From positions 3,131 through 67,130 of the forward strand of contig CALUQY010000001.1 in the NCBI GenBank assembly GCA_944323035.1: DNA of 64,000 nucleotides. Direction: 5' to 3'. This DNA comes from Candidatus Gastranaerophilales bacterium (lineage in GTDB: Bacteria > Cyanobacteriota > Vampirovibrionia > Gastranaerophilales > Gastranaerophilaceae). A program made the translations under genes and the position numbers. Positions 8,643 through 57,149 of the stretch are shown here, piece after piece. Every line of letters starts with the position of its first letter. Within the stretch, counting starts at the first letter, position 1. Under the pieces are notes generated by a model. That model was not told the origin of the DNA and made no database searches. It worked only from the letters and a program-made list of their open reading frames with translations.

Positions 8643-8689
8643 TTTTCCATCCTTTCTTTTATTGCGTTGGGCTGGAAAGCCCAACCTAC

Positions 8690-18331: not shown

Positions 18332-18464
18332 TCATTTTCACTCCTTTTGTTACGAATTATTAATATATTATTGCCATATACGGCACCATTGCCAAATAAT
18401 ACAAACATAATATCAAGCACGGCCGTATTTGTCAAGTGAGTGACAAATATCGTATACTCAGGTT

Positions 18465-18680
18465 ATGAAATTGAAAGCAAAAGAATTAGTTAAAGTTTTA
18501 TTATCAGAACAAAAGGTTCAACAGAAGGAACTTGCACAAATGTTAAGCGAGAAAGCCGGTAAGAGTTACACGCCAAGCGGTCTTTCGCATAAAATCGGAC
18601 GCGGAACGATTTCATACGACGAGGTTTTACTAATCGCTGACATTCTTGGTTACGAAATATCCGTCAACCGCAAGCCGTAA
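18465..18680 (+). CDS. Small helix-turn-helix DNA-binding protein
   Basis: 71 aa, QKELAQMLSEKAGKSYTPSGLSHKI resembles an HTH. Promoter carries the palindrome TTGTCAagtgagTGACAA (18423-18440) followed by TATACT. Confidence 0.4.
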   Translation: MKLKAKELVKVLLSEQKVQQKELAQMLSEKAGKSYTPSGLSHKIGRGTISYDEVLLIADILGYEISVNRKP

Positions 18681-18683
18681 AAC

Positions 18684-30433: not shown

Positions 30434-30712
30434 ATGATTAAATCATTCAAACATAAAGGTTTGGAAGAGTTTTTTAACACCGGCTCAAAAAAAGGCATCC
30501 AAGCTATACACGCAGAAAAATTAGTATTAATTCTGGCAATCCTTGATACAATGAAAAATCTTGAACCTTTACAACCGGCAATGTTCAGACTCCACAAACT
30601 TGAAGGTAAAATGAATGATTTATGGTCAATTACAGTTCAGGCAAACTGGCGGATAACTTTTCGATTTGAAAATGAAAATGTTTATGTCGTTGATTATCTG
30701 GACTACCACTAA
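30434..30712 (+). CDS. higB: HigB-family (RelE/ParE-fold) toxin
   Basis: MIKSFKHKGLEEFF...RLHKLEG...WSITV..NWRITFRFENENVYVVDYLDYH, the classic HigB 'killer protein' pattern. SD aaggat sits 3 nt upstream of this ATG, which is preferred over the track start at 30413. Confidence 0.85.
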   Translation: MIKSFKHKGLEEFFNTGSKKGIQAIHAEKLVLILAILDTMKNLEPLQPAMFRLHKLEGKMNDLWSITVQANWRITFRFENENVYVVDYLDYH

Positions 30713-30723
30713 GGAGGTCGAAT

Positions 30724-31002
30724 ATGTTTAACCCGCCGCATCCGGGAAAAATATTAAAAGAAATCTATCTTAAAGATTATAATCTGACTGTCACTGAATT
30801 CGCACTAAAAATCGGAGTTTCCAGAAATACGGCTTCGGAACTCATAAACGGCAAAAATCGTGTGACTGCAGAAATGGCACTAAAATTGGCTAAAGCATTT
30901 AAAGTGTATCCACAATTTTGGCTGGATTTACAAGCAAAATATGACCTATGGAATGCAGAACAGTCTGTTAATCTTGATAACGTTCAGGTAATTGCAATAT
31001 AA
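30724..31002 (+). CDS. higA: HigA antitoxin (XRE-family HTH)
   Basis: HPGKILKEIYL.....TVTEFALKIGVSRNTASELINGKNRVTAEMALKLAKAF....FWLDLQAKYDL. Confidence 0.85.
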   Translation: MFNPPHPGKILKEIYLKDYNLTVTEFALKIGVSRNTASELINGKNRVTAEMALKLAKAFKVYPQFWLDLQAKYDLWNAEQSVNLDNVQVIAI

Positions 31003-32836: not shown

Positions 32837-34870
32837 TTAAAAGAGTACAATCTGCGGATAAACCTCATTAAGAAATCGCTGCGCATCCTCAAGCGGGAAA
32901 ATACCGACAGAAAATTCCGCGCGGTTGAAACCGGGCTGTTGTGCTTCCGGAACTTCAATAGGCGGGCCGGCAGGGGTTGTACGGCAAGGATTTGAAGGGT
33001 TAGAAATCACACCAACGCTTCTTAAAAGCGTAACTTTCAGAGAATTTTCCTCAACCTCGTATTCGGTCAAACCTTTTGTAATGACACCAAGCCCCTGCGC
33101 CCAGACGAAACGCTGCATCGGCGCAAAATTTGTTTTAACTTCGTGTCCGCGCTCGTGCGGGAGGTTTTCGCGAACTTTCCAGTCAGGGTCAAACCCGCGG
33201 CGGATAATCTCATTCATATCTTCGGAAAAAGTTTCCACAACAGGAGAAGGAAGATTAAATTTCGCCTGCCAGAGCGTATTTTTGAATTTATTATCCCAAT
33301 CAATTTTAAAATTCAAGAGGGAGGAATTTTTATTCAACGTAATAACAACGTCAAAGAAAGTCGTTTTGACCTTCAACCCGACCCGCAAATCGCCCTCAAA
33401 AAGAATATCGTAAGAAATTATAAACGCCCTCTCCGGCACAACACCCGCGACAAGCCCGTGATTATAGGTATCTCCGATATCGCGAACCCGCGTAAATTCA
33501 ATGAAATTCTCCCATTTTTGCCCGCCTGCATAAAGGTTAAATTCCCCCTGCTCAATTTTCATAGTGAGATGAGAATTACCGATTTCCGTATCAAGAATAT
33601 GCAAAACATCACTTGACGGCTCGATTTCACGCAGGTTGGTATAAATCGTTGTGTAATCCTCTGTAACAGGAATCCGCTGCGTATCATGAAGGAGCTTTGT
33701 TTCAAAGCCTTTACGCTCTGCAACAACCTGACTTTCAATCTGCGTGCTCTCATATTCAATTACGCCTTTAAAATCAGAAAAATTAATCAATCCGGAGTGG
33801 GTTAAACGCAATTCTTCAATAACCGTATTCGCAATTTGAAGCACTTTTTTATACCTTATAACGTTTTCTTCGTGTGTTTCATCGGTAGAACAGCCGCAAA
33901 TTCCGTCGTGTGCCAGATTTTGCAAAAGCAATTTATAAGCATATTCAATTTGCGAATCATACCCACCGCCAAAATACTTTTGAAGTTTATCTGCGAAATG
34001 AAGCTTATTTGAAGCCTCGACATTTAACTGTTTTATCTTAGTGCGCGCAGAATAGCTTCCGGGAAGAATAAAAGTTGCGGAGTTATCGCGGAGTTCGTCA
34101 TTCCACTCAAACCCTGAAAACCGTTCTTTAACCGCAGCGAAATAATCAAAAGGCGTTCCAAGCTGAATTTCATAATCTTCCAACAGCAGATTTACACTTT
34201 CAATTTGCTCTGCAATATTCTCTTCTACCCCAAGGTGATCTGCACCGATAGGCAAAAGAAGAACATCCCCTGATTTTTGCGCAATCAAGTCCAAATTTTT
34301 CTTTAAAAACTGAGCCTTTTCTTCCACCGTCACCGATGATGAAAACATATCCATAAAATATCCGCGAACCAAATTCACCGTATCAACCCCGTTGAATTTG
34401 AATTCTGCCGGAACCGACTCCGGACACCCACGCCAGACCATACATTTATCAATACCAAATTGCGCCAGAATTTTCGGAACATTTTGACTGTGTCCGAAGG
34501 TATCTGCAAGATAGCCTATAAAATCTTCACACCCGAACCCGCGTGCGATTTTCAGCCCTATTTCAAGATTTTTCTCAAAACAAATACGGTCAGTTAAAAA
34601 TTCATCAACGAGGCAGTAAAAAGGCCCTATAAAAAGTTTTTTCTCCGCGATAAATCTGCGGATAAGCGGTTCTTTTTCAGGTCTGATTTCAAGGTAATCA
34701 AGGAGCGCAGCGACCTGCCCGTCAAAATAGAATGAAGGAATTGCTCCGGACTCAAGCATAGTCAAAACCCGGTCAAACACGCGCACAAGCCTCATCCTAA
34801 AGACTTCAAACTCTCTATACCACTCCCTATCCCAGTGAGTGTGCAAATACGCAATAACTGTTTTTGTCAT
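32837..34870 (-). CDS. Glycoside hydrolase family 38-like (alpha-mannosidase-type) protein
   Basis: N-terminus VIAYLHTHWDREWY resembles the GH38 H-x-H-x-D-x-x-W metal-binding motif. Size is compatible with bacterial GH38 enzymes. Confidence 0.45.
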   Translation of the reverse strand: MTKTVIAYLHTHWDREWYREFEVFRMRLVRVFDRVLTMLESGAIPSFYFDGQVAALLDYLEIRPEKEPLIRRFIAEKKLFIGPFYCLVDEFLTDRICFEKNLEIGLKIARGFGCEDFIGYLADTFGHSQNVPKILAQFGIDKCMVWRGCPESVPAEFKFNGVDTVNLVRGYFMDMFSSSVTVEEKAQFLKKNLDLIAQKSGDVLLLPIGADHLGVEENIAEQIESVNLLLEDYEIQLGTPFDYFAAVKERFSGFEWNDELRDNSATFILPGSYSARTKIKQLNVEASNKLHFADKLQKYFGGGYDSQIEYAYKLLLQNLAHDGICGCSTDETHEENVIRYKKVLQIANTVIEELRLTHSGLINFSDFKGVIEYESTQIESQVVAERKGFETKLLHDTQRIPVTEDYTTIYTNLREIEPSSDVLHILDTEIGNSHLTMKIEQGEFNLYAGGQKWENFIEFTRVRDIGDTYNHGLVAGVVPERAFIISYDILFEGDLRVGLKVKTTFFDVVITLNKNSSLLNFKIDWDNKFKNTLWQAKFNLPSPVVETFSEDMNEIIRRGFDPDWKVRENLPHERGHEVKTNFAPMQRFVWAQGLGVITKGLTEYEVEENSLKVTLLRSVGVISNPSNPCRTTPAGPPIEVPEAQQPGFNRAEFSVGIFPLEDAQRFLNEVYPQIVLF

Positions 34871-34929
34871 ACATTTTATCTTAACATAAAATGGCAAAAA
34901 TTAACATTTTTGATGAAAACCGCTTTCTA

Positions 34930-36309
34930 TTACAGAAACTTCCTTTTTACAAAACAGAATAGAAACCGCTCAACCGTTTGAAGTATTACAACATCGGCAT
35001 CCCCTATATTACTTTTCTTGACGTCATAAGTCCAATAGTAAGATACATCACGGAAAGTATTAGAAATAAACGGTAACATCGCACGGGAAAATGAATCCCG
35101 AAACATAACAAGTTTTGGTGCATCAATGTCCTTATGTGAAAACATATCATTATGCGACAACAAATCGCTCGGAGTGGTATCTTTTATAGAAAATTCATAG
35201 TCTTTTGTTATAAATGCATCTACATATTCGGTATTTGCAGCCGCACTCTTAGATAATCCAATCAACATATTATCTAATTCTTTAATTCCCGCCTTATATC
35301 TAACAAATTTTTCAGGTTTTACCGGCTCAATATCAACGCCATCATTAATCAATGCATCTGCCAATGCTTTATACCCGACATATCCGCCTAAAGAGTTCCA
35401 ATGCGTATCATTTTTCCAGTATAAAAGCTCGCCTTTTTCCTTAGCCTGATACAGTTCATTATATGGATAAATCACCTTAATATCCGTATGTTTATGCAAA
35501 TAATTTATCAACTGCATAACACGGCTTTTGCTATTAGGAATAGTTTGTTTTATATAATCAGGATAATACTCACCATAGATTTTATTCTTATCCGGTCCAA
35601 TAAAGAAATAAAAACGCTTATTCCTTTGTTTACAATATTCATCAACTGAAACCAGATAGTTAGCAATATATTTTAATTCATCATCGGTAAACAAATCTAA
35701 ATTCAGGAAATTACGAACACCATTCTCTCCTTTATAAAATAACCAGTCATCTTTGCCTATCACAACATCCGGCTGATTTTTATCTAAAACAAATTTTGCA
35801 TTAAACTTTAGCAGCAGATTTCTTAAGTTAAATCTGTCACTGAACCATTTGTCATAATCGCGGCCAAAATTATAGTTTATTTGTCCTTTTTTGTTGATAA
35901 ATGGCTTCCATACCGCAAGATTTCGGTTCTCTGCATCTGATTTTTTTGCATCTGAGATATGGCTCATCGGAAGAAACATTATTACTGTACATACTGCCAA
36001 AAATACTATATCTATACGGGAATACTTCTTCTCTGTCTTAAAATCCGCAAGATATGAAGTCAGTTTATACGATAGCAGATAACCTAATATCGCAATGATT
36101 ATAAACGGCAACGCGTCAAACTTTACACTCGGACGAACGGGTTTGCGAGATTGGCTGTTTATAGCGGGTAAGGCACGCCCCCCCCCCCCCCGCACTGTTT
36201 GCACGGCAACAGGTGATTTCGGTTTTATCGTAAGCCACGCATTGTGGCTCAAGCCTAATATCACGAATACAAGTAATATACTTATTATACTTCTTTTACG
36301 CATTAACAT
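34930..36309 (-). CDS. AlgJ/AlgX-like (DHHW-family) polysaccharide O-acyltransferase-associated protein, paralog A, in-frame G14 tract
   Basis: TM1, then R-GGGG-R encoded by G14, then TM2/TM3 (ALPFIIIAILGYLLSYKLTSYLADF), then a periplasmic domain NRNLAVWKPFINKKGQINYNFGRDYD...WKNDTHWNSLG (DHHW-type motif variant DTHW). Confidence 0.6.
   Translation of the reverse strand: MLMRKRSIISILLVFVILGLSHNAWLTIKPKSPVAVQTVRGGGGRALPAINSQSRKPVRPSVKFDALPFIIIAILGYLLSYKLTSYLADFKTEKKYSRIDIVFLAVCTVIMFLPMSHISDAKKSDAENRNLAVWKPFINKKGQINYNFGRDYDKWFSDRFNLRNLLLKFNAKFVLDKNQPDVVIGKDDWLFYKGENGVRNFLNLDLFTDDELKYIANYLVSVDEYCKQRNKRFYFFIGPDKNKIYGEYYPDYIKQTIPNSKSRVMQLINYLHKHTDIKVIYPYNELYQAKEKGELLYWKNDTHWNSLGGYVGYKALADALINDGVDIEPVKPEKFVRYKAGIKELDNMLIGLSKSAAANTEYVDAFITKDYEFSIKDTTPSDLLSHNDMFSHKDIDAPKLVMFRDSFSRAMLPFISNTFRDVSYYWTYDVKKSNIGDADVVILQTVERFLFCFVKRKFL
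36178..36191 (-). repeat. Homopolymeric G14 tract (C14 on +) inside coding region
   Basis: Counted: ccc + cccccccccc + c at 36178-36191; encodes RGGGGR in frame. Confidence 0.9.
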
Positions 36310-36314
36310 TTCTC

Positions 36315-37718
36315 CTAAAATCTAAAATAAATAAACGGATTATACGTTGAAGCCGCTATGGTCGCAGTTGAGAAAATCAACAGCACAATAAGCCAAACAT
36401 TCACAAAGGCTTTTACAATTTTGTTTTCCTGTTGCAGCATCTTCCCGCACAACGGCGTACAGCAAATAAATGCAGCTGCAAAAATTATAAATTCAAAATT
36501 ATCAACATAATACGGCAATGCATAAATTACATCATGAACTTTAACCAGCCCGAACATATTTTTAATATATGTCCACGCATACGCCATATCTTCAGCCCTG
36601 AACATTACCCAGCCGATTACAAATACAAGAATTGTATAAATATGTTGAAGGACTTTCTGCCAGATATATTGTTTTTCTTCATGCCAGCCGGTTAATTTTT
36701 CCAGAATAATAAAGAACCCGTTCCACGCGCCCCATACAACAAAATTCCACGCAGCACCATGCCAGATACCAGTCAGGAGAAAAACTATACCCAAATTCCG
36801 GATAGTTTTCCATTTTCCGGCTCTGTTTCCGCCAAGCGAAATATACACATACTGTTTGAACCATGTCGAAAGTGATATATGCCACCTGCGCCAAAATTCC
36901 GTAATAGATTTTGAAATATAAGGATAATTAAAGTTTTCAAGGAAATGAAACCCGAAAATAAGCCCAAGACCTATTGCCATATCCGAATATCCCGAGAAAT
37001 CAAAGAACAACTGCAAAGAATATGCAATGCTTCCCAGCCATGCAATAAGCGGCGAAAAAGTATCCGGCGCCTGAGAAAATATTTTATCCGCAATAGCCCC
37101 CATTGTATTTGCCAGAAGCATCTTTTTAGATAAACCTACAATAAAACGCTTTGTTCCGAATACAACTTTTTCAAAGTTAACATCACGATTATCTATCTGA
37201 TCCGCGACATCATGGTATTTAACAATCGGCCCTGCTATTAACTGCGGGAACAAACATATATAAAGCGCAAGTTTATAAACATCCTGCTGTGCCTTACATT
37301 CTCCACGATACACGTCTACGACATAAGACAAAGCCTGAAAGGTATAAAAAGAAATACCAATCGGCATTACAATATGGAGTAAATCAATATGAGAATGGAA
37401 AAGTCCATTAATATTCTCAATTAAGAAGTTAAAATATTTGAAGTAAATAAGTGAGCCTAGATTGATACAAATAGTCAAAATCAAAGGAATCTTAGCATTT
37501 CTGCCGGATTCTTTAAACTTTTCAACGATTTTTGCGCCATAAAAATTAACAAGTATCGTTAAAAGCATTATAGCCAGATACTTAGGCTCACCCCATGCAT
37601 AAAATATTATGCTTGCGACAAGTAAAATCGGATTGTGAAGCTCTTTTTTGGAAATCAAATAGAGCAAGCACACAATCGGCATAAACATATACACAAACGT
37701 CATTGACGAAAATAACAC
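36315..37718 (-). CDS. MBOAT-family membrane-bound O-acyltransferase (AlgI/DltB/PatA-like)
   Basis: Multi-TM protein; MBOAT signature WRRWHISLSTWF...GIWHG with the conserved His. Confidence 0.85.
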   Translation of the reverse strand: MLFSSMTFVYMFMPIVCLLYLISKKELHNPILLVASIIFYAWGEPKYLAIMLLTILVNFYGAKIVEKFKESGRNAKIPLILTICINLGSLIYFKYFNFLIENINGLFHSHIDLLHIVMPIGISFYTFQALSYVVDVYRGECKAQQDVYKLALYICLFPQLIAGPIVKYHDVADQIDNRDVNFEKVVFGTKRFIVGLSKKMLLANTMGAIADKIFSQAPDTFSPLIAWLGSIAYSLQLFFDFSGYSDMAIGLGLIFGFHFLENFNYPYISKSITEFWRRWHISLSTWFKQYVYISLGGNRAGKWKTIRNLGIVFLLTGIWHGAAWNFVVWGAWNGFFIILEKLTGWHEEKQYIWQKVLQHIYTILVFVIGWVMFRAEDMAYAWTYIKNMFGLVKVHDVIYALPYYVDNFEFIIFAAAFICCTPLCGKMLQQENKIVKAFVNVWLIVLLIFSTATIAASTYNPFIYFRF

Positions 37719-39442
37719 TAATTACCCTCCTTGTATAAAAATTTTAATCTTATAGCAGATGATAAACAGAGCACTAATACATTTGTATTATTATTCAATA
37801 TATCCTTTTCAAAACGTTCAATATTTAAGTTTTTAAAAGCCAGACTAATTTCCGGAAGCCAGGTATAAATTCTTTCTGTATTTTTAAAGCTATAAACAAT
37901 AGATTGTAAAAGATTTTCACCCATAGAATCTCCCCAAAGAGTCAAATTTGGAGCGGCAACATCATGTTTAAAATGTTTTAGCTTGTAATTTGCAGGATAA
38001 TTGGAATCAATCTTTAATGAAACATTTTCAGATTCTTTATTTTTATAATACTTATATTCAGTATCAAAAATTTTTTCATCTTTTAAGTGTAATACATTTG
38101 CAGTAAAACCGTTATGAAATGGGCGTTCCGGTTCGACCCTTACCTTTGGTGAATAAAAATAACTAAAATCACTCTCGTCATTAACATAAATAGAAGGAAA
38201 ATCCTTTTTTATATACTGCATTAAACATTTATATGCAAGATAAGCACCCTCATCAGTCCAATGGTGATCAGTCTTGTAAAAAAGCAATTCTTTACCGTTT
38301 GCAGCATTCTTAAATTCATCAATCGGATACAAAATATCAACATTTATCTTATTTTTAACATACTCTTTCACTTGCATCGTACGTGCATATTCATTACTTT
38401 TTGCAACCAGCGGAAATAGATTTGCTGAATAAACGTCATATTTTGAAGGGGCAATTAAAATATAAAATTTTATATTATTTTTCAGACAAAATTGTTTTAA
38501 ACGATTTATACTATAAACTATTCGTTCCAATTCCTCATTATTATAATAGCCGGATGATGGCCAATACGTATTACTCATCCAATTATTTCTTTTATTTATA
38601 AATCCCTGTTTATTTTCAAAATAATAAAATGCTATTTTATATTTAAATTGATTATAAAAAGATACTAAATATTCACGTAAATTAAACCTGTCACTGAACC
38701 AATTATCGTAATCACGCCCAAAATTATAGTTTATTTGACCTTTCTTATTAATAAATGGCTTCCAGACTGCAAGATTACGGTTTTCAGCATCTGAAAGTTT
38801 AGCATCAGAAATATGACTCATTGGTAAGAATAAAAATAACGCACAAATAATTAAAAATATTATATCTATACGGGAGTAATTACCAACGACCTTAAAATCT
38901 GCCAAATATGAGGTCAGTTTATACGACAGCAGATAACCTAATACCGCAATGATTATGAATGTCAATGCTTCAAATTTTATACCGGAGCGGACTTTTAGTT
39001 TTTCAGGATATGTCAAGCTGAAAGTATTAGCAGAAGGCATTAAGGAGTCCCCCCCCCCCCCGTACGTAGCACAGGACGCTAACTTAAACTCGGATACAGA
39101 TGGAAATTTAAACTTACCATTCTTCAGCGTAATATCTTTTATTTCAATTGGAGATAAATTCGATGATTTAACTACAATTCTAAAGCGTTTTGGGAATCTA
39201 GCTCTATCTATTTGACATTCACATTTCTGTATATTTCCATTCAAGTGTTTCTTTATAACGCACTGTTTTACTTTTTTAAAATCCTCATTATCCTTCTTAT
39301 TCAACTGGACGGTAAATGTATAATCTCCGTTACCTTTTACCAGAAAACTCACCGGCATTGGTTTAAATATCAGCCAGTGATTGCAGGTAAGAGCTAGCAT
39401 AATTATTGTCAAAACCCCGCTTATAATATCTCTTCTTCGCAT
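37718..39442 (-). CDS. AlgJ/AlgX-like DHHW-family protein, paralog B, in-frame G13 tract
   Basis: FYKTDHHWTDEGAYLAYK (canonical DHHW). N-terminal 200 aa are ~identical to paralog C. ATY-GGGG-DS encoded by G13. Confidence 0.65.
   Translation of the reverse strand: MRRRDIISGVLTIIMLALTCNHWLIFKPMPVSFLVKGNGDYTFTVQLNKKDNEDFKKVKQCVIKKHLNGNIQKCECQIDRARFPKRFRIVVKSSNLSPIEIKDITLKNGKFKFPSVSEFKLASCATYGGGGDSLMPSANTFSLTYPEKLKVRSGIKFEALTFIIIAVLGYLLSYKLTSYLADFKVVGNYSRIDIIFLIICALFLFLPMSHISDAKLSDAENRNLAVWKPFINKKGQINYNFGRDYDNWFSDRFNLREYLVSFYNQFKYKIAFYYFENKQGFINKRNNWMSNTYWPSSGYYNNEELERIVYSINRLKQFCLKNNIKFYILIAPSKYDVYSANLFPLVAKSNEYARTMQVKEYVKNKINVDILYPIDEFKNAANGKELLFYKTDHHWTDEGAYLAYKCLMQYIKKDFPSIYVNDESDFSYFYSPKVRVEPERPFHNGFTANVLHLKDEKIFDTEYKYYKNKESENVSLKIDSNYPANYKLKHFKHDVAAPNLTLWGDSMGENLLQSIVYSFKNTERIYTWLPEISLAFKNLNIERFEKDILNNNTNVLVLCLSSAIRLKFLYKEGN
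39049..39061 (-). repeat. Homopolymeric G13 tract (C13 on +) inside coding region
   Basis: Counted cc + 10c + c at 39049-39061. Confidence 0.9.
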
Positions 39443-39532
39443 TTACTCCTCCTTACCTAAACTATATTACAAACAGGGAGAATATTCATTCAAACATTCA
39501 ACATTTTAAATAAAATGTTACAATAAAACAAT

Positions 39533-41257
39533 TTACAACTTTTCCTCAAAAATATCCATAAAAGAATCCATATTTAAGAAACGTTGTAAAAAACGTTCTG
39601 TCGTTTCTATAATTAATATATCCGGTTTTTCAGAAAACAATAGACGTTTCATGTTTTCATTCAAAACAAAATTTCTACCACCACCAAAGAATAGATATTT
39701 ATAGATATGAAAATTTTCAGCCATGAAATACCTACAACGTAATTGAAAACTGTCACCAATTAAAACAAGTTTTAAATCATTTTGAGATTTTGCATTACTA
39801 TACTCATATAGTACATCATCTGAATTATTAGTAACATGTATGATAGATTCTTTAGCATTTGGATATTTGAGTTTATAATAATTAAAGCGATCTTCATATT
39901 TTGCTATAATGTTTTTATTTGTAATATTAAGACTGTCACCAATACGTTTACTACTAACCAATTCAACATCACTAAAATCTAATGGCTGAATATCTACAAA
40001 ATCTTTTTGTAAAGTCGACAGAATCGTTTGATACTCTATAAATGCCCCATCATAATTTAAATGGCTATCAGTTTTAAAAAATACATTTAGCTTTTTTGAA
40101 ACTAATAATAATTTTTCCTTAGAGGTTATTACTGACAAATCATTAATGTGTGAGATTATTGCTAATAATTGTTCATAACGGCTTTGACAATTATTTTGTA
40201 AATAATACTTCGGATAATATTCGGGGTAGATACTTTCTTTATCTGGTGACAACATAATATATAATTTAACATTGTGCTTTTTACAATATAAGTTTAATTC
40301 ATTTAAATTTTGCTGTATTGTAAACAACTCTTCTTTAGAAAATAGATTGTTTTTCAAATACATTTGAGTTGCATTATATGATTTGCGATAACAATAACCC
40401 GAAACCTTATCTAATATCATGACTCTTGTTTCATAGTACCTACCGGGAAGAATAAAATGTAATTGTTCATACAAACCAAACAATACACTCCGTAAACCAA
40501 ACCTGTCACTAAACCAGTTATCATAATCACGACCAAAATTATAATTTATTTGACCTTTTTTATTAATAAATGGCTTCCAGACGGCAAGATTTCGGTTCTC
40601 TGCATCTGATTTTTTTGCATCTGAGATATGACTCATTGGTAAGAATAAAAATAACGCACAAATAATTAAAAATATTATATCTATACGGGAGTAATTACCA
40701 ACGACCTTAAAATCTGCCAAATATGAGGTCAGTTTATACGACAGCAGATAACCTAATACCGCAATGATTATGAATGTCAATGCTTCAAATTTTATACCGG
40801 AGCGGACTTTTAGTTTTTCAGGATATGTCAAGCTGAAAGTATTAGCAGAAGGCATTAAGGAGTCCCCCCCCCCCCCGTACGTAGCACAGGACGCTAACTT
40901 AAACTCGGATACAGATGGAAATTTAAACTTACCATTCTTCAGCGTAATATCTTTTATTTCAATTGGAGATAAATTCGATGATTTAACTACAATTCTAAAG
41001 CGTTTTGGGAATCTAGCTCTATCTATTTGACATTCACATTTCTGTATATTTCCATTCAAGTGTTTCTTTATAACGCACTGTTTTACTTTTTTAAAATCCT
41101 CATTATCCTTTTTATTCAATTGAACTGTAAACGTATAATCCCCATTCCCTTTAACGAAAAAGGTTACAGGTAAAGGTTTAAATATTAACCAGAATTTACT
41201 CGTCAAAACAAGCAATATTATGGTCAAAATAGCACTTATAATATCCCTTCTACGCAT
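39533..41257 (-). CDS. AlgJ/AlgX-like family protein, paralog C (degenerate DSHL motif), in-frame G13 tract
   Basis: N-terminal ~215 aa identical to paralog B (DNA 40615-41257 = 38800-39442). C-terminal domain diverged, FFKTDSHLNYDGAF. Confidence 0.55.
   Translation of the reverse strand: MRRRDIISAILTIILLVLTSKFWLIFKPLPVTFFVKGNGDYTFTVQLNKKDNEDFKKVKQCVIKKHLNGNIQKCECQIDRARFPKRFRIVVKSSNLSPIEIKDITLKNGKFKFPSVSEFKLASCATYGGGGDSLMPSANTFSLTYPEKLKVRSGIKFEALTFIIIAVLGYLLSYKLTSYLADFKVVGNYSRIDIIFLIICALFLFLPMSHISDAKKSDAENRNLAVWKPFINKKGQINYNFGRDYDNWFSDRFGLRSVLFGLYEQLHFILPGRYYETRVMILDKVSGYCYRKSYNATQMYLKNNLFSKEELFTIQQNLNELNLYCKKHNVKLYIMLSPDKESIYPEYYPKYYLQNNCQSRYEQLLAIISHINDLSVITSKEKLLLVSKKLNVFFKTDSHLNYDGAFIEYQTILSTLQKDFVDIQPLDFSDVELVSSKRIGDSLNITNKNIIAKYEDRFNYYKLKYPNAKESIIHVTNNSDDVLYEYSNAKSQNDLKLVLIGDSFQLRCRYFMAENFHIYKYLFFGGGRNFVLNENMKRLLFSEKPDILIIETTERFLQRFLNMDSFMDIFEEKL
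40864..40876 (-). repeat. Homopolymeric G13 tract (C13 on +) inside coding region
   Basis: Counted 7c + 6c at 40864-40876. Confidence 0.9.
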
Positions 41258-41425
41258 TCAAAACCTCCTTATAAGAATATACAACAAAAAGGCCCATTTC
41301 CCTATTGAGCCCTAAATATACTAAACAAAATGTTACATAACAAAATAATTATCCTAATACATAGCCAAATCAGAGAATAACTGTAACAAAAAAGGCACCT
41401 ATAATTCTAAAAAAGGAGTTGAGCG

Positions 41426-41815
41426 ATGAAAAAAATATGTAAAATTTTAGGGATTTTCTCTCTGTTAATAATTACCGCAAGTCAGGCAAACGCAGGGATT
41501 TTCTCCAAATTCCGGAGCTGGGGAAACAATTTCTGGAACAACGGCTGGGGCAGCGGTAGATATTATAATGGCTACAACTGCCCTTATCACAATCATTACT
41601 ATGGCAACAGACCTCCGCGCGGATTTTTCCACAGCGGTAATATGACCGGATTTACCCCGCCTATTAACGGAAGCATCTATCCGGGTTACGGGAATTTCAA
41701 CCGTCCTATGTATCCCGGAAGTCATATAAACTCTATAAATTCTATGCCGCAGCAGGTTATTACGGATTTTAATTCCAATGTCGGCACCCGCACAGGCGTC
41801 ACTATTTTAGATTAA
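41426..41815 (+). CDS. Secreted Gly/Asn/Tyr-rich small protein (hypothetical)
   Basis: Signal peptide MKKICKILGIFSLLIITASQANA, then low-complexity NGWGSGRYYNGYNCPYHNHYYGNRPP. Confidence 0.4.
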   Translation: MKKICKILGIFSLLIITASQANAGIFSKFRSWGNNFWNNGWGSGRYYNGYNCPYHNHYYGNRPPRGFFHSGNMTGFTPPINGSIYPGYGNFNRPMYPGSHINSINSMPQQVITDFNSNVGTRTGVTILD

Positions 41816-41877
41816 TTATTGACTTTATACCGCAAGATATGATACAACTATACTGTAAGAATTACAGGAGAGTTAGT

Positions 41878-42066
41878 ATGGGTAAATTAATCGTTATCAT
41901 ATTGCTTGCAATAGGTGCATATTTTATCTATGAAAATCAGGACGAACTTTTAGCCAGTGCAAAAGAACTTTTTCTAAAAGAAAAAACTGTCATGAAAGTT
42001 AACAACGCCAGTGCAGAAAAGCAAAAAGCCATTGAAAATGCTATGGATCAGGCATTGGAGTATTAA
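41878..42066 (+). CDS. Small membrane-anchored hypothetical protein
   Basis: MGKLIVIILLAIGAYFIY then charged helix. Start at MGK is preferred over the track start. Confidence 0.3.
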   Translation: MGKLIVIILLAIGAYFIYENQDELLASAKELFLKEKTVMKVNNASAEKQKAIENAMDQALEY

Positions 42067-42069
42067 AAA

Positions 42070-42342
42070 ATGGCTACAGAAGTTTTTCAATTTAAACCGC
42101 AGGGTGTCTGCTGTCAGTTAATGCAAATTTCTGTCAATGACGGAATCGTAGAAGATGCACAATTTATGGGCGGCTGCCACGGCAACCTTCAGGGCATCGG
42201 CAAACTCGTCAAAGGAATGCCCGTTGATGAAGTTATTACAAAGCTTCAGGGAATAAAATGCGGAAGTAGACCGACAAGCTGCCCTGATCAGTTGACCCAA
42301 GCACTAGTTGCATATAAAGATCACAAAAATGCTCCTGTATAG
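42070..42342 (+). CDS. TSCPD-domain protein
   Basis: C..........GGCHGNLQGI..L..G........KL.GIKCGSRPTSCPDQL, which includes the eponymous TSCPD motif. Confidence 0.55.
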   Translation: MATEVFQFKPQGVCCQLMQISVNDGIVEDAQFMGGCHGNLQGIGKLVKGMPVDEVITKLQGIKCGSRPTSCPDQLTQALVAYKDHKNAPV

Positions 42343-42494
42343 CGTCGGCCGGTGCTCACAGTGCCAACACATGTTAGTGTGGTGAGCAGGTGAGCATTAC
42401 GATACCGCCGTTACGATTGGAGCAGAGCGTAAAGAATGTACAGAAAATCCTATAGCAATGCTATAGGATTTTTTGCCTGACGTGAAAGCGTTTT

Positions 42495-43565
42495 TTATTT
42501 AGTAATTTCCCTGTTATTTTCAACCATTTTCCACGCCTGACGCGGGCAGAGCGCCGCACAAATTCCGCAGCCTATACACTTATTATCATCGGAATGGTAA
42601 ATTTTTGCCTCTGTAGAAATCGCATTTTGCGGACAGTTTTTAACACAAATATCACACCCGATACAAAGTTCTTTATTCCACTGCGGAATACGGCATCTGG
42701 CATCACCGGTTCCTGCAAGTTCAAACACCGCATAATCATCTGTAATAAAATCCCCGAAAATCCCGCCCGGAATCCATTCTTTTTGACGGAATTCCGCAAC
42801 CGGCATTCTGTTCTTTGAGGATTGTGCAACGGTTTGAATTTTATGCCATTCTTTAAAGTTTGTAAGTTCATTATAAAGTTCAGACCGACCGATTTTATCA
42901 AGAAATCTTTTCAGTCCGGAGCGCAAAAATTCAATATCTTTTTCATCAAGGTTCAGGATTTCGACGCAATGCGACAGGTTTTCAACTTTTCCGCGCACAA
43001 AAATTGTACCGCCGACCATTCCGCCGCAGGAGCCTTTCCCTAATACAGATTCCAGCCTGTCGCAGTCATAACCGCAGACAATTGCAATACCGCCGCCCAT
43101 AAATTCAAAACTATAAGAACCCGTATTTTTTAAAACCCAGAATTCAGGGATTTTAAAACGCGGATCGTGTTTCATCAGAGCGCCCGAACGGGTTCCGACA
43201 CGTCCGCCGATGTAGATTTCACCTGACGCGGCACAATGAGCGGTCGTATCACCGCTATCTCCTTTTACAATAATTTCCGCGCCGGAATTTAACCAGCCGG
43301 TATCCGCCGGAACTGAACCCTCAACAATAATTTGGGTACCTTTCATACCCATTGCCCCGACACGCTGACCCGGATTCTTAACAAGAAAATGCAAAGTTTT
43401 GCTTCTGTCGCGCGCCCAGCTTGAACCGCCGATATTATGCTGTCCGCAGCCGTTTATCTCAAAATCAGTATACCCCTCGTCAATTTTTGCCTGAATTAAT
43501 TGCAAAAGTTCCTGAGTGGACATTCTGTTTTCATTTATTAAAGTTTCAATTTTAAATCTTTCCAT
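42495..43565 (-). CDS. Glutamate synthase domain-3 (GXGXG) protein fused to 2x[4Fe-4S] ferredoxin (archaeal-type split GltB)
   Basis: Repeated G-x-G-x-G beta-helix motifs (GSVPADTGWLNSGAEIIVKGDSGDTTAHCAASGEIYIGGRVG..). C-terminal CIGCDICVKNCP...CIGCGICAALCP. Confidence 0.65.
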   Translation of the reverse strand: MERFKIETLINENRMSTQELLQLIQAKIDEGYTDFEINGCGQHNIGGSSWARDRSKTLHFLVKNPGQRVGAMGMKGTQIIVEGSVPADTGWLNSGAEIIVKGDSGDTTAHCAASGEIYIGGRVGTRSGALMKHDPRFKIPEFWVLKNTGSYSFEFMGGGIAIVCGYDCDRLESVLGKGSCGGMVGGTIFVRGKVENLSHCVEILNLDEKDIEFLRSGLKRFLDKIGRSELYNELTNFKEWHKIQTVAQSSKNRMPVAEFRQKEWIPGGIFGDFITDDYAVFELAGTGDARCRIPQWNKELCIGCDICVKNCPQNAISTEAKIYHSDDNKCIGCGICAALCPRQAWKMVENNREITK

Positions 43566-43576
43566 AAAAATTTTAC

Positions 43577-45205
43577 CTAGATTGAATACTGGATATCAAG
43601 CCGCCTTGCAATGTGTTTATCAACTGTAATCAAAGCATCAGAACGCCCGATAGGGAGAGTTGAACAGCCCACAGGCCCCATTAACTTTTTCAGTTCCATA
43701 TCCGTTGCAACAATAAAATTAACCAGATTTTCGGCAACTTTGTCTATATCAAGGCGTTTTGTCAGACAAGCTTTTTGAGAAGTTAACCCTGCCGGACAGT
43801 TTCCTGTTGAGCAGGCATTACATTTTTCAGTATCGTTGCCACAGCAGCCCGCGATTTGTAAAAGCAGACGACCTGTAAACACACCGTTTGCGCCAAGACA
43901 AATCAATTTAAACGCATCCGCAGCAAAGCTTCCGGTTTGCCCCAAGCCGCCGCCGGCAAATAGCGGAATTTCACCCTGACGCCCCTGATGAACCGCTGCA
44001 AGATAGCAATCACGAAGTTTTGACGTTATCGGATGCCCTGTATGGTTTAAAGAAATTTCGTGCGCCGCTCCCGTGCCGCCGGCAAAACCGTCGATAAAGA
44101 AGCCGCCGACAATATTATACGGGTCGCGAAGCAGATTATTATAAACCGCAACACTTGTAACTGACGCTGCCACCTTAATCGCAACCGGAACGCGGAAATT
44201 AAACGCCGCGTTCATAGATAAGAACATCTTTTGAACACTTTCCTCAATCGAATAAAGCCCCTGATGCGTCGGCGGGCTCATCAGATCAGCCTTCGGAACC
44301 CCGCGGATTTCCTGAACATATTTTGAAACTTTATTTGCAAGCAGCAGCCCGCCGTCACCCGGTTTTGCGCCCTGTCCGATTTTGATAAGAATACCGGCAG
44401 GATCCTCAACCATTTCGGGCATTGTTTCAATAATCCTGTTCCAGCCGAAATGCCCTGACGCAATTTGCAAAATCATATATTTTAAATATCTTGATTTCAA
44501 AAGGCTTACCGGAATTCCGCCCTCACCCGTTCCCATTCGGATAGGAATACCCATTTTCTCGTTAAGATAAGCCGTTGCAATTGCAATCGCTTCCCACATT
44601 CTCGAGGAAATTGCGCCGATTGACATATCCCCGAAAATTATCGGATAAATCCAACGGTTTGGCGGCAAGGGTTTTGTTTGCAGGATTTTATCACCTTCAA
44701 CTTCAAATCCGAGCTTATCAGCTGATAAGACCCTTCCAAAAGGCGTTTTTATCTCAAATGTATGGCGAACCGGATCCAGTGACGGATCTGTCATTTGCGA
44801 AATTCTGCCGATTTTAATTTTATCCAGCGTTCTGCCTTCTGTATTAAGGTTAGACCGCCCGCCGCGCTTCAAAGATTCACCTTTTTCCGCACGATAACGG
44901 ATTGCATACCTGTCATCAAAATTTCTAACAGCCTTAATCGCGCCATTCGGACATACGTTTGCACACATTCCGCAGCCTACACAGTGGTTTTCAAACCCGA
45001 CATTCTGCTTGATAACCATAACTTTCTCATAACTATTTTTTTCGTTAATACTGCCGGATTTTTTGCGCATTTCAACAGCAGGACTAATCGCGCCAAAGGA
45101 ACAGACCGCCATACATTTGCCGCACTGAATACATCTGGATTCGTCATATTCAATAATCCAGGGTAAATCTTCTTTATGCAATTCATTAACTTTTACTGCT
45201 GCCAT
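43577..45205 (-). CDS. Glutamate synthase FMN-binding domain-2 protein with N-terminal ferredoxin (archaeal-type GltB)
   Basis: CIQCGKCMAVC...CVGCGMCANVCP, then a TIM-barrel FMN domain with GEGG...GG..G motifs. Confidence 0.75.
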   Translation of the reverse strand: MAAVKVNELHKEDLPWIIEYDESRCIQCGKCMAVCSFGAISPAVEMRKKSGSINEKNSYEKVMVIKQNVGFENHCVGCGMCANVCPNGAIKAVRNFDDRYAIRYRAEKGESLKRGGRSNLNTEGRTLDKIKIGRISQMTDPSLDPVRHTFEIKTPFGRVLSADKLGFEVEGDKILQTKPLPPNRWIYPIIFGDMSIGAISSRMWEAIAIATAYLNEKMGIPIRMGTGEGGIPVSLLKSRYLKYMILQIASGHFGWNRIIETMPEMVEDPAGILIKIGQGAKPGDGGLLLANKVSKYVQEIRGVPKADLMSPPTHQGLYSIEESVQKMFLSMNAAFNFRVPVAIKVAASVTSVAVYNNLLRDPYNIVGGFFIDGFAGGTGAAHEISLNHTGHPITSKLRDCYLAAVHQGRQGEIPLFAGGGLGQTGSFAADAFKLICLGANGVFTGRLLLQIAGCCGNDTEKCNACSTGNCPAGLTSQKACLTKRLDIDKVAENLVNFIVATDMELKKLMGPVGCSTLPIGRSDALITVDKHIARRLDIQYSI

Positions 45206-46408: not shown

Positions 46409-47747
46409 TTAACGTTCAACACATCGGGAACTATATCTATTATTCCTTGAAACCAACATTCTGGCTCCTGAAGAGATATTTTGAGCCCAAGCCTTTGTAC
46501 CGGAAGTCGTATACCCCAAAGAAGATGTCCAAATTGAGCCATTACCGGTTCCGATAAAATGATCACGACTTTGCATTCTTTTATTAACAAAAATGGCTCC
46601 TGCTTCTTCTGTTGTTGGAAGTCTATACTTATTATCCTGTGCAGTACAATATTTAGCGGCATCAATCCAGCCGTTTTCATGAACAGCATTTTCACGTTTT
46701 ACATAAGGTGCTGCCAAAACGCTATCCGTTGGATAAAAAGCGGTCATAAAACCTATATCTTTACCAACAGTATTCGGCCCTTTAAGTCCATTAAGATCAT
46801 ATACAAAATTTGCGCAAACCATTGTCTGTATTGGCACATGAGCTTCAGAAGATTTTAAATCTGCAACGCAGTTTTTATTATAATAAACAGCAATACTTTC
46901 ACCGTTAGCAGTTTCAAACGCAACAGCTTTACTCCGTATAGCGCTATAAGAATACGTAGAGTCATAACTTGAGCTTGCCAGAACCATCTGTGTATTTAAA
47001 GCAGCCATTGTTGTGGGGAAATTAAAATCTGCTTCACCAGAAAGGCGTGTTATTGTTTTAGGTAAACCGCAATCTTTAAAATGTTCATTGTCACAGATAT
47101 TATTAATTTTTAAGACTTTAGCCAGTCCTGCAGTGACGAAAGTTTCAGCAGCTGTATCCGCCGTGACACTGCCGGAATCATCTTCCGCTAGTGTACCATA
47201 ACCATTAAGATTAGGCATTAAGGCAATTGCCTGACTCATTCTGGCATAGAGGGCTTTTCGCTGCGTGTTCCATGTGCGCTCGTTAATGTTTCCCGTAAGG
47301 CTCGGTAAGGTTATCGCCGCCACCACACCTATTATCGTGAGGGATAAGAGTATCTCCGCCATAGTAAAAGCTAATCGCGCCAACCGCCCCACGTCATTGC
47401 GAGCGACCACCGGGAGCGTGGCAATCCACCGGCGGTCAAGCCGGCTTCCTAATTGGTTGGGCGTTAAAAAGTCATGTTCTACCAGTTGTGGATGCCACTC
47501 AGCGGTCGGTTCAGCCGGTGTCATCCCGAATTTATTTCGGGATCTGTCCGGCGACACTGATAGCCCGCATCGCTGGCCAGATGCTGAAACGAGTTCAGCA
47601 TGACAGTTTTGTTTCACATTCTCGCTTTGTGCCTCTGTTCGCTCGCGCTGTTCGCAATGACAATTATAGGCTTTCGACTCGCCAATAGTGCCTGTTAAGA
47701 GAGGCCCCCCCCCCCCCTGCATTAATGCTTACTCTTCGGTTTTTCAT
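46409..47747 (-). CDS. Type IV pilin-like paralog, polyG OUT of frame (phase OFF) relative to conserved start
   Basis: Conserved RBS + ATG at 47747 gives MKNRRVSINAGGGG.. and terminates after 27 codons with G13. Pilin frame 46409-47722 contains ..LARLA|FTMAEILLSLTIIGVVAAITLPSL. G12 or G15 would fuse the two frames. Confidence 0.65.
47705..47717 (-). repeat. Homopolymeric G13 tract (C13 on +)
   Basis: Counted 6c + 7c at 47705-47717. Confidence 0.9.
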
Positions 47748-51793: not shown

Positions 51794-53030
51794 TTAATTA
51801 CGCTTGACGCATTTGACCCTTTTGGCTTCTGTTTCATCTATAGGTTCAAGAAATATTCTTCCGGTTGTGCCGCTCATATTCCATGCTTTAGTTGAATCAT
51901 AGCGGCTGGATGACCAATAGTGTAGACTTGCAATATTAAGCAATTTGCTATTATAAAACATAGAAATAACTTCACCTATGTTTGGCACACGGTATTCTGC
52001 ATCCAAAGCCGTACAGGCCTTGGGTGCCTCATTAAAGTCAACTTCAACGCCCGCATTCCGAGGATACAGCATCGGGGCGACAACAAGGCTGTCTGACGGA
52101 TACAACACCGTCATTACACCGATGTCTTTACCAACAGCATTCGGACCTTTGCTGCCGTTTAGGTCATACACAAAGTTCGCACAAACCTTGCTCGCACCAT
52201 AGTAATCTGTTTCCTGCATATCTGCCCTGCAAGTTGGATTATAGAAGGCGAGAATACTTTCGCCATTCTGGGTTTCAAAAGCAGCGGCTTCGCTATCTAC
52301 ATTACTATAAGAATAGTCTATTGGTGTTGAAGCAGTAGTATCGGTAAATGACATACTTGTGTTTTTAGGGTTCAATTCACTGACGAGTTTTGGCATTGAC
52401 GTTGTACTGCCAGCGTTATCCGTAATCTGTTTTGAGGTTATTCCGCAATCTTCAAGGTGGTCTTTGTCGCAGATATTATTAATTTTCAAAACCTTAGAAA
52501 GCCCGGCCGTTACAAAAGTTTCGGCATCGGAATAGCCGTTCATTGAATCCATTAACGAAACTGCCTGTGAAAACCTTGCATATAGCGCTTTTCTTTGCGT
52601 ATTCCACGTTCGTTCATTAATGTTTCCTGTAAGTGACGGAAGCGTTATCGCTGCGACTACGCCGATAATTGTTAGGGATAACAGTATCTCAGCCATGGTA
52701 AACGCTGACCGTAAGCTGACCAGACCATTGTGGAACCGGCTCAGCCGGGCTGCCATCGTGAATGCGCAACGTTGGTTCTCCCGCCTGTCAAATTCTACGC
52801 AACGATTATCAATCGTTGCAGAATTTGTCCGCTCCTTACACTCGCGCTCCAGTCGCAACGGCGGCATCGTCCAGTTGCGCGCCCTGCCCGTTTCGCTCGC
52901 GCGAACCGGCGCCGGCTCTCCGCCCTTCGCTGTAGCTTTCACGCCGTCCGTGAGCACGGATTGCTTAGATAGAACCGGCTCAGCCGGCCCCCCCCCCCCC
53001 TGCATAAGTAATTACACTTCGGTTTTTCAT
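51794..53030 (-). CDS. Type IV pilin-like paralog, polyG OUT of frame (phase OFF)
   Basis: ATG at 53030 gives MKNRSVITYAGGGGAG*. Pilin frame 51794-53005 contains ..LRSA|FTMAEILLSL. C-terminal ~240 aa are identical to the 56046-57149 paralog. Confidence 0.65.
52988..53000 (-). repeat. Homopolymeric G13 tract (C13 on +)
   Basis: Counted ccc + 10c at 52988-53000. Confidence 0.9.
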
Positions 53031-56045: not shown

Positions 56046-57149
56046 TTAACGCTTAACGCATTTAACCATTTTCCATCCGGTTGAGCTAATTGGCTCAATA
56101 AATATTCTTCCTGTTGTTCCGCTCATATTCCAGGCTTTAGTTGAATCATAGCGGCTGGATGACCAATAGTGCCTATTTGCAATATTAAGCAATTTGCTAT
56201 TATAAAACATAGAAATAACTTCACCTATGTTTGGCACACGGTATTCTGCATCCAAAGCCGTACAGGCCTTGGGTGCCTCATTAAAGTCAACTTCAACGCC
56301 CGCATTCCGAGGATACAGCATCGGGGCGACAACAAGGCTGTCTGACGGATACAACACCGTCATTACACCGATGTCTTTACCAACAGCATTCGGACCTTTG
56401 CTGCCGTTTAGGTCATACACAAAGTTCGCACAAACCTTGCTCGCACCATAGTAATCTGTTTCCTGCATATCTGCCCTGCAAGTTGGATTATAGAAGGCGA
56501 GAATACTTTCGCCATTCTGGGTTTCAAAAGCAGCGGCTTCGCTATCTACATTACTATAAGAATAGTCTATTGGTGTTGAAGCAGTAGTATCGGTAAATGA
56601 CATACTTGTGTTTTTAGGGTTCAATTCACTGACGAGTTTTGGCATTGACGTTGTACTGCCAGCGTTATCCGTAATCTGTTTTGAGGTTATTCCGCAATCT
56701 TCAAGGTGGTCTTTGTCGCAGATATTATTAATTTTCAAAACCTTAGAAAGCCCGGCCGTTACAAAAGTTTCGGCATCGGAATAGCCGTTCATTGAATCCA
56801 TTAACGAAACTGCCTGTGAAAACCTTGCATAAAGCGCTTTTCTTTGCGTGTTCCATGTTCGCTCGTTGATGTTACCGGTAAGGCTCGGTAATGTTATCGC
56901 TGCCACCACGCCGATTATCGTCAGGGATAATAATATCTCTGCCATTGTGAACGCTGCGTTTTTCGTCATCCCGAATTTAGTTCGGGATCTGTCCAACGTT
57001 ACCGGTAGCTCGCTTTGCTGGACAGACCCTGAATCAAGTTCAGGGTGACAATAAAATTTTACGTTGTCCGTGAGCACGCTTTCCGATTGTAGAACCGGCT
57101 CAGCCGGCCCCCCCCCCCCCGTGCAAATACTTACACTCTGTTTTTTCAT
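56046..57149 (-). CDS. Type IV pilin-like paralog, polyG in frame (ON)
   Basis: MKKQSVSICTGGGGPAEP... runs through G13 in frame to ..MTKNAA|FTMAEILLSL; an alternative short leader MTKNAA is also available. Shares its 3' ~720 bp with the 51794 paralog. Confidence 0.7.
   Translation of the reverse strand: MKKQSVSICTGGGGPAEPVLQSESVLTDNVKFYCHPELDSGSVQQSELPVTLDRSRTKFGMTKNAAFTMAEILLSLTIIGVVAAITLPSLTGNINERTWNTQRKALYARFSQAVSLMDSMNGYSDAETFVTAGLSKVLKINNICDKDHLEDCGITSKQITDNAGSTTSMPKLVSELNPKNTSMSFTDTTASTPIDYSYSNVDSEAAAFETQNGESILAFYNPTCRADMQETDYYGASKVCANFVYDLNGSKGPNAVGKDIGVMTVLYPSDSLVVAPMLYPRNAGVEVDFNEAPKACTALDAEYRVPNIGEVISMFYNSKLLNIANRHYWSSSRYDSTKAWNMSGTTGRIFIEPISSTGWKMVKCVKR
57108..57120 (-). repeat. 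Homopolymeric G13 tract (C13 on +)
   Basis: Counted ccc + 10c at 57108-57120. Confidence 0.9.

Follow-up and report, generated by a model that had tools for sequence, protein, structure and literature searches.

Mosaic partner genes with variable polyG tracts around a predicted MBOAT acetyl donor in a gut Candidatus Gastranaerophilales bacterium

The 64-kb stretch of chromosomal DNA analyzed here (39.8% GC; hereafter the window, taken at its full length) comes from a gut Candidatus Gastranaerophilales bacterium (Melainabacteria) and carries, according to its list of open reading frames (ORFs), four closely packed minus-strand genes at 34930-41257, which we call C, B, M and A in the order in which they are read. 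Gene C (39533..41257) encodes a protein of 574 aa made up of a first transmembrane (TM) segment, TM1, a beta-sandwich N-terminal domain, a tract of 13 guanines (G13), a TM hairpin, a linker and an AlgX/AlgJ-like catalytic domain, catC. Gene B (37718..39442) also encodes 574 aa and has the same architecture with an unrelated catalytic domain, catB. Gene M (36315..37718, 467 aa) encodes an MBOAT acyl-donor membrane enzyme resembling PatA, AlgI and DltB, and gene A (34930..36309, 459 aa) a protein with a short N-terminus (TM1), a G14 tract, the TM hairpin, the linker and a catalytic domain, catA. The spacer between C and B is 90 nt, the stop codon of B abuts the start of M, and A begins 5 nt after M. 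A, B and C, the only AlgJ-like paralogs in the window, are all complete, with start codons and ribosome-binding-like sequences.

Pfam ALGX is matched by A (3.7e-15), B (2.1e-11) and C (3.2e-11), DHHW additionally by A and B, and MBOAT (PF03062, E 2e-35) by M. The nearest solved structure by sequence is DltB for M (1e-25) and Bacillus cereus PatB1 for B (7e-14). An AlphaFold model was available for B alone of the three partners (predicted local distance difference test score, pLDDT, 81), and it places TM1 at residues 3-23, the beta-sandwich at 24-157, the TM hairpin at 159-205 and the catalytic domain at ~214-561. Foldseek comparison of this catalytic domain returned PatB1 (1.7e-12), the DHHW protein 4NZK, AlgJ (1.5e-9) and AlgX, while the beta-sandwich gave only weak MmpS5/PLAT-like fold matches. 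The catalytic motifs are NDTHW/RDS in A, TDHHW/GDS in B and TDSHL/GDS in C, and the residues D/E392, H394 and S506 (B numbering) are shared without exception by 21 homologues, though their catalytic domains are only 17-45% identical. By sequence and by model, A, B and C are O-acetyltransferases of the AlgJ/AlgX/PatB1 fold, their activity being predicted. The C-terminus of M, as read from the sequence, ends in NPFIYFRF, and the WHGAAW motif with His320 is present. In the PatA/PatB model a C-terminal motif of this Tyr-bearing type shuttles the acetyl group (PMC12148441).

Conservation is distributed very unevenly along the partner proteins. Their catalytic domains are unalignable as DNA, as the sequence-only reading of this stretch had stated for the C-terminal domains of B and C, and 21-29% identical as protein (B and C 21%). 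The TM hairpin and linker of A (35822..36138, minus strand) share 80-83% DNA identity with those of B and C and form the most conserved module of the family, in which most of the invariant columns lie (L168...R256). A query with the MBOAT protein retrieved 80 syntenic loci, most of them labelled Gastranaerophilales or Melainabacteria, and across loci the MBOAT is 70-95% conserved while the adjoining catalytic domains are 20-45% identical. By analogy with the PatAB model (PMC12148441) the hairpin with its linker is the probable MBOAT-docking part.

Direct comparison of B with C reveals a single unbroken run of 485 identical base pairs, 38811..39295 in B and 40626..41110 in C (offset 1815, both on the minus strand), which corresponds on the coding strand to nt 148-632 of the coding sequence (CDS), i.e. 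codons 50-211, and which takes in ~85 aa of the beta-sandwich (residue 50 onward) together with the G13 tract and TM2/TM3. The sequence-only reading had given the identity as ~640 bp (38800-39442 against 40615-41257), a span in which 42 of 643 positions in fact mismatch (93.5% identity); of the parts that it held to be shared, the N-terminal domain (from residue 50), polyG and TM2/TM3 remain, and the promoter-proximal region and TM1, which are ~55-73% identical, do not. The edges of the block are sharp, with divergence rising abruptly from 0% to 27% on both sides. Upstream, the first 147 nt contain 39 differences, distributed over codons 1-49 as 21 synonymous and 10 non-synonymous differing codons, and the intergenic DNA further upstream is only ~50-65% identical. 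On the 3' side, the 51 linker codons contain 14 synonymous and 7 non-synonymous differences. Synonymous divergence in the flanks of the block is saturated, and over the codons of the block one of 162 differs, against 21 synonymous changes in codons 1-49. Over the first 790 nt B and C differ by 71 mismatches, none of which falls in the 485-bp run (analytic P ~3e-28), and in 200,000 permutations the longest mismatch-free run was 190. The plus-strand ORFs of 88 aa at 38949-39215 and 40764-41030 lie within the block and are identical, as first read, and they are probably not genes because they are antisense to B and C and have no Pfam match.

A second, shorter identity connects C with A. The patch that had been described as exactly shared by A and C, with B differing, measures 47 nt (CATATCTCAGATGCAAAAAAATCAGATGCAGAGAACCGAAATCTTGC on the coding strand) and occupies 35915..35961 in A and 40584..40630 in C, both on the minus strand; read in the coding direction of C, it comes directly after the B=C block. 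Its counterpart in B (38769-38815) differs at nine sites. This run lies within a 332-nt region in which A and C have 73 mismatches (permutation P = 1.8e-4). The patch of A is also exactly present in the second gene of a related locus, L092, which is described below.

The same genes were then followed in other assemblies, in contigs retrieved by an exact look-up of a 129-aa flanking protein and by protein hits; their flanks are 97-100% identical to the window and the locus itself differs. For comparison we divided the upstream genes into segments: the promoter with codons 1-49 (S0), codon 50 to the polyG tract (S1), the tract itself, the hairpin and linker (S2/3) and the catalytic domain (S5). 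In this notation the window, with the order C-B-M-A, contains c.x.y.catC (gene C) and b.x.y.catB (gene B). Contig L093 has c.x.z.catC', is without a B gene and runs directly into M; L094 and L098, from two samples, have c.x.z.catA', an M allele that is 84.7% identical and no downstream A gene; and L101 has b.x''.y.catC' followed by M and A. The C-specific 5' end (41111..41257, minus strand; codons 1-49 with TM1) is 100% identical in L093, L094 and L098, and the B-specific one (39296..39442, minus strand; codons 1-49 with TM1), 73% identical to that of C, recurs with 100% identity as the 5' end of L101's only upstream gene. In general, segments common to several alleles are 100% identical, alternative segments are 50-80% identical, and catA' of L094 and L098 has ~80-83% DNA identity to A of the window. 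The first junction lies at CDS nt ~147 (codon ~49), the next at the polyG tract and a third at ~706-767 in the linker region with the conserved NYNFGRDYDNWFSDRF; another falls within M at ~37120-37350. The 5' ~600 nt of M (37120..37718, minus strand) travel with the variable cassette, being 86-93% identical in L093 and L101 before identity rises to 99-100% further 3'. The number of paralogs ranges from 1 to 3 across strains.

The five alleles drawn from {c,b}, {x,x''}, {y,z} and {catC,catB,catC',catA'} show incongruent combinations and four-gamete violations; all combinations of segment classes are present, and therefore recombination is required. The segment x occurs with C's own 5' end elsewhere (c.x.z), and y with the 5' end of B (b.x''.y). 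Because the two halves travel with different 5' ends in other strains, the x-polyG-y block of the window is, judged by these alleles, a composite product of recombination. For the direction and the timing of the conversion we can only infer: the x of B seems to derive from a C-type gene, and the y of C from a B-type gene. By the same comparisons C is an at least four-part mosaic, including the 47 nt identical to A that precede its own linker and catC.

Such incongruence extends to the wider family. P0003 and P0008 are 96% identical in residues 1-135 and 22% identical in the catalytic domain; the N-terminal modules of P0015, P0025 and P0027 are 90-94% identical and their catalytic domains 17-22%; P0009 combines a B/C-type N-terminal domain with a hairpin 93% identical to that of A (316 bp, 96.5% DNA identity); and catA-type domains occur with either N-terminal type, upstream as well as downstream of the MBOAT. 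The sharp block edges, the re-joined segments in near-identical strains and this incongruence bear out the original proposal of recombination or gene conversion among paralogs with cassette-like diversification, and the alternative junctions that it suggested looking for across strains were found among the assemblies, the same N-terminal module being joined to catC-like and to catA-like domains. A donor search for z, x'', catC', catA' and the L094 M allele in all fetched loci gave matches from related assemblies only and no donor species. The N-terminal module alone, searched against a set of 5.8 billion proteins, matched four fragments and no further fusion partners, and an exact search of JGI metagenomes for the junction of the x end with polyG gave no match.

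Two side observations belong here. The locus L092 (6504-11208 of ERZ16268189 scaffold_198) is from a related lineage with the same flanking genes and flanks ~90% identical; of its three AlgJ-like genes, which lie in a row, the first has the A-type N-terminus and a G13 tract, and the second a B/C-type N-terminal domain with a hairpin 96.5% identical to that of A. In the glutamate-synthase-like genes at 42669-42975 and 43000-44400 of the window, short patches of 82-96% identity to L084, L093 and L094 interrupt strains that are otherwise identical, which suggests that homologous recombination imports are frequent throughout the species.

The window contains seven G/C tracts of at least 10 nt. A, B and C have one each, all in frame on the minus strand. 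The G13 of B (39049..39061, C13 on the plus strand) encodes part of YGGGGD and lies 234 and 238 nt from the block edges; the G13 of C lies at 40864..40876, and in other strains this is where x joins the alternative y or z segments; the G14 of A (36178..36191) is in frame with 14 or 11 G and out of frame with 13. The proteins encoded by contigs of other samples are exactly those of the window, and over the 21.7 kb that L081 shares with it the sole differences are single Gs added or missing in two tracts. The tract of A has 14 G in the window, 13 in six samples and 11 in one; those of B and C have 13 in the window and five samples and 12 in three; two samples with an A->G change after the tract have 14 or 13; and in one sample the tract of C has 11. 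Simulated out-of-frame products are 133-138 aa long for B and C and 49-64 aa for A, and samples with G12 have split gene calls of 133+440 aa, in agreement with the frame simulation. The polyG on/off switching proposed from the sequence is supported by these lengths, which differ among otherwise identical assemblies. Across the order, 18 of 72 homologous genes have a polyG tract directly before the part that encodes the TM hairpin, and these 18 include genes of two long-read (HiFi) metagenome-assembled genomes, L001 (G13, G15) and L010 (G13).

The G12 state has one additional feature. At 39040-39048 and 40855-40863 of the window, the N-terminal 133-aa fragment that B and C give in this state ends at a TAA sharing bases with an in-frame ATG (cTTAATGcc), and this ATG opens the remaining 440 aa; z-type alleles are without the ATG (TTAACG), so the feature is unconserved. 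In y-type alleles the tract might, at G12, toggle between a fused and a split protein via termination-reinitiation, rather than simply turn the gene off.

Beyond the locus, four proteins that are paralogs of each other (43-80% identical) have polyG around codon 10 of the leader that they share (MKNRRVS.../MKKQSV...). Their tracts lie at 8601-8610, 47705-47717, 52988-53000 and 57108-57120, in the minus-strand genes 7464-8684, 46409-47722, 51794-53005 and 56046-57149, respectively. A hairpin-like sequence, GGTTTGGGCTTTCCAGCCCAACGCAA, is conserved upstream of each gene, a prepilin-like FTMAEILLSLTIIG motif is likewise common to all four, and one of the proteins has an Lcl_C domain match below the Pfam threshold. 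The tract at 47717 has 12, 13 or 14 G in near-identical strains. With these four genes, the organism has a wider set of polyG contingency genes.

Taking all this together, we consider it likely that the four genes form a contingency locus in which polyG switching is combined with module exchange in MBOAT-partnered acetyltransferases. Several points weigh against this explanation. Loci L007 and L018, from other species and with two upstream paralogs, have copies that are ~71% identical throughout and no conversion block; in an intralocus repeat survey of 80 other species these two loci showed nothing comparable, and therefore the conversion block is lineage-specific and not general. L092 has three AlgJ-like genes and no MBOAT at the locus, so that the partnership is not obligatorily local. 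The evidence for switching and exchange comes from comparisons between assemblies; the "ongoing" exchange of the first reading goes beyond it, as would switching within one population, and enzymatic activity and the acceptor glycan are predicted. All same-species contigs are short-read metagenome assemblies (with SPAdes-style or scaffold names), and the joins exactly at polyG could in principle be chimeric joins of co-existing strains; the x|z join was found in three samples and the x|y join in eleven. Finally, B and C always have the same tract length (13/13, 12/12, 14/14) and the same A->G variant within an assembly, while both differ between assemblies. As a separate observation, direct repeats of 95-99% identity and 0.3-2.1 kb are present near the MBOAT in some other Gastranaerophilales loci (L055, 8-786 and 2997-3775; L075, 11300-13405 and 14670-16768; L053, 13847-14185 and 14842-15180).

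The agreement between B and C within assemblies leads to the alternative that survives best, namely an assembly artefact: repeat collapse or chimeric joining would have produced the 485-bp identity, or even the C-B tandem as a whole, which we regard as unlikely. The co-variation of B and C may reflect a collapsed repeat node used twice, in which case their exact identity and the switch states of the single copies are not independent observations. Had the two tracts switched independently, one would hardly expect them to agree in each of the nine to ten assemblies (by our estimate ~0.5 per assembly and ~0.002 overall), so that either conversion keeps the copies in step or one graph node was used for both, and the latter would hide a few single-nucleotide polymorphisms (SNPs) and the switch states. 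Both copies in L085 have G13+C, with the A->G change, a variant which is also found as a natural allele (G14+CTCC) in L094, L100 and L101; this is compatible with collapse or with concerted evolution. The use of short reads throughout is in favor of the artefact, and so is a contig break inside the polyG of A: L082 ends at 13252-13281 (window ~36178-36191) with 19 G followed by C9, which looks like an assembly break or artefact at a homopolymer and makes tract lengths at contig ends unreliable. Against it, the unique flanks (the C- and B-specific 5' ends, catC, the C-B spacer and the passage from catB to M) are contiguous in 11 samples of the series BRZ and ONAT22-1. Moreover, a de Bruijn graph merges only near-identical copies and cannot produce a 485-bp identity from ~75%-identical sequence; collapse hides at most a few SNPs and the tract lengths of the single copies, and it concerns only the exactness of the identity; and the mosaic is seen also among the single-copy alleles of L093, L094 and L101, where there is no intragenomic repeat. 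With respect to the caveat, voiced when the block was first noticed, that it might be produced by assembly, the tandem itself is not an artefact, having its unique junctions in 11 further samples, and the exactness of the B=C identity may reflect collapse.

Much less probable is a plain tandem duplication followed by divergence, without gene conversion. B and C are adjacent, both have 574 aa and they share their architecture, as such a duplication would predict, but it does not explain the abrupt passage from 0% to 27% divergence at both edges or catalytic domains that are 21% identical, and it cannot yield block halves that occur apart elsewhere (x with z, y with x''), each of them 100% identical. 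We give equally little credence to programmed shuffling by an invertase shufflon, a diversity-generating retroelement or silent-cassette conversion as in pilE/pilS. The segments are cassette-like and one junction lies at a G-rich tract, which is reminiscent of such systems, but all three copies are complete genes and not promoterless fragments, and the alternative segments are found in different strains instead of being stored in one genome. There were no inverted repeats in 33000-43000, no silent partial copies in the window besides the three complete ones, and no recombinase or reverse-transcriptase domains among the scanned window ORFs or the precomputed Pfam hits for genes of the matching contigs. 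A nucleic-acid function keeping the block identical, through the antisense 88-aa ORFs or a regulatory RNA, is the least probable of all: the antisense ORFs are identical in both blocks, but they have no family match, the alternatives x'' and z of the same species are only 50-80% identical, paralogs of other species are ~71% identical across the region, and neither the antisense ORF nor any structured RNA is seen to persist from x to x'' or from y to z. Separately, a phage-borne serotype-conversion cassette was ruled out, as a search with the family alignment found no viral relatives in IMG/VR.

Within the explanation by switching and module exchange, the polyG tract could have two roles, as an on/off switch and as a preferred junction or initiation site of recombination, a suggestion that we put forward only tentatively and hold to be rather improbable. 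It is raised because the block is centered on the tract, because three segment pairings (x|y, x|z and x''|y) meet exactly there and because the halves of the block differ in ancestry. Such a tract is hypermutable, and if it stalled replication or broke, it could start short conversion tracts in both directions as well as exchange between alleles. If the tract does promote exchange, phase variation would be mechanistically coupled to module shuffling.

For the acetyl relay, the docking of the hairpin, the glycan target and the selective agent we infer the following scheme. By analogy with MBOAT-SGNH systems and the PatA/PatB model, M would take an acetyl group from acetyl-CoA onto the Tyr of its C-terminal FIYFRF and pass it to the catalytic Ser of whichever partner, A, B or C, is expressed. 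Each partner would consist of TM1 with or without the beta-sandwich, the polyG tract, the hairpin and linker as the probable M-docking part, and a hypervariable catalytic domain. The hairpin and linker would dock onto M in the manner of the PatAB model, in which the membrane region of PatB contacts helices 1 and 17 of PatA (PMC12148441), and the divergent catalytic domain would set which envelope glycan, or which position on it, is acetylated. Slipped-strand changes in the G11-15 tract would shift the reading frame and in this way choose which partners are made, while homologous recombination at the conserved module borders would swap segments, through gene conversion among paralogs and, after DNA uptake, through strain alleles. 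The outcome would be a variable acetylation of envelope glycans under phage or host-immune pressure.

MBOAT-SGNH acetylation is known for peptidoglycan, alginate and cellulose in the PatA/PatB, AlgI/AlgJ/AlgF/AlgX and WssH/WssI systems. To our knowledge neither phase variation nor modular allele exchange has been reported for the PatA/PatB, Alg and Wss systems, and our literature search for it also came back empty; likewise, a search for phase variation in Gastranaerophilales/Melainabacteria or in AlgJ/MBOAT systems returned nothing relevant. The best match of the catalytic domain by both sequence and fold is Bacillus cereus PatA1/PatB1 (PDB 5V8D/5V8E), which O-acetylates a secondary cell-wall polysaccharide and also has an adjacent MBOAT partner gene and the D-x-H...S catalytic residues. 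In contrast to that pair, three alternative partners, each with a polyG tract, flank one MBOAT here, the partners have three TM segments and two of them an extra beta-sandwich, identity is only ~18-20%, and the host is a diderm Melainabacterium. The Gram-negative systems resemble the locus in the C-terminal Tyr hexapeptide of the MBOAT and in the membrane-anchored SGNH-like partner (PMC12148441). Unlike the alginate-type systems, the locus has no gene for AlgF, AlgK or a polymer synthase next to it.

With respect to variation, parallels are found in pathogens. In Neisseria opa and in Helicobacter pylori babA/babB, frame switching at 5' repeats is accompanied by mosaic recombination or gene conversion among paralogs. 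The locus is similar to these in combining frame switching with recombination of conserved and hypervariable segments between paralogs, but opa and babA/babB encode outer-membrane adhesins and not enzymes, use CTCTT or CT repeats and are dispersed instead of being grouped around a shared enzyme. The MeOPN (O-methyl phosphoramidate) transferase genes cj1421 and cj1422 of the Campylobacter jejuni capsule are near-identical in their N-terminal part and different C-terminally. These adjacent paralogs are switched by intragenic polyG tracts, which gives combinatorial surface states (PMC8437040, PMC3417653). Here too adjacent paralogous surface-glycan modifiers each have a polyG switch, whereas the chemistry is MBOAT-relay acetylation as opposed to phosphoramidate transfer, the phylum differs, and segment exchange can be read from the alleles of different strains, one of the junctions being the tract itself. 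The strategy is therefore a familiar one; the features that are new are several switchable modular partners per MBOAT, a mid-gene tract between the accessory domain and the hairpin, and a recurrent seam at the tract.

The surroundings of the locus do not clearly indicate a glycan substrate, its neighbors being a gene for a GH38-like hydrolase, which is the next after A, and housekeeping genes. Type II secretion and Mla genes are located elsewhere in the window. A HigB-like toxin and a helix-turn-helix antitoxin form a pair at ~30434-31002, ~4 kb from the locus (annotated in L081 at 18440-19008, with coordinates converted by hand). A promoter and terminator consensus scan of 34800-41900 gave 43 promoter-like sites, where 36+/-6 would be expected, found no terminator on the minus strand, and is uninformative with regard to transcription units.

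For metagenomics the locus is a caution, as it is at such places that short-read assemblies collapse repeats, break contigs and mis-call split or truncated genes. For the MBOAT-SGNH mechanism it offers a natural experiment with one donor and interchangeable partners, in which the conserved hairpin and linker, set against the divergent catalytic domain, mark the parts for docking and for specificity. In the uncultured gut Melainabacteria, of whose surface biology next to nothing is known, the locus indicates a strong diversifying pressure on the acetylation of envelope glycans, presumably from phage or host antibody, met here with a toolkit of the kind used by pathogens, hypermutable tracts together with recombination.

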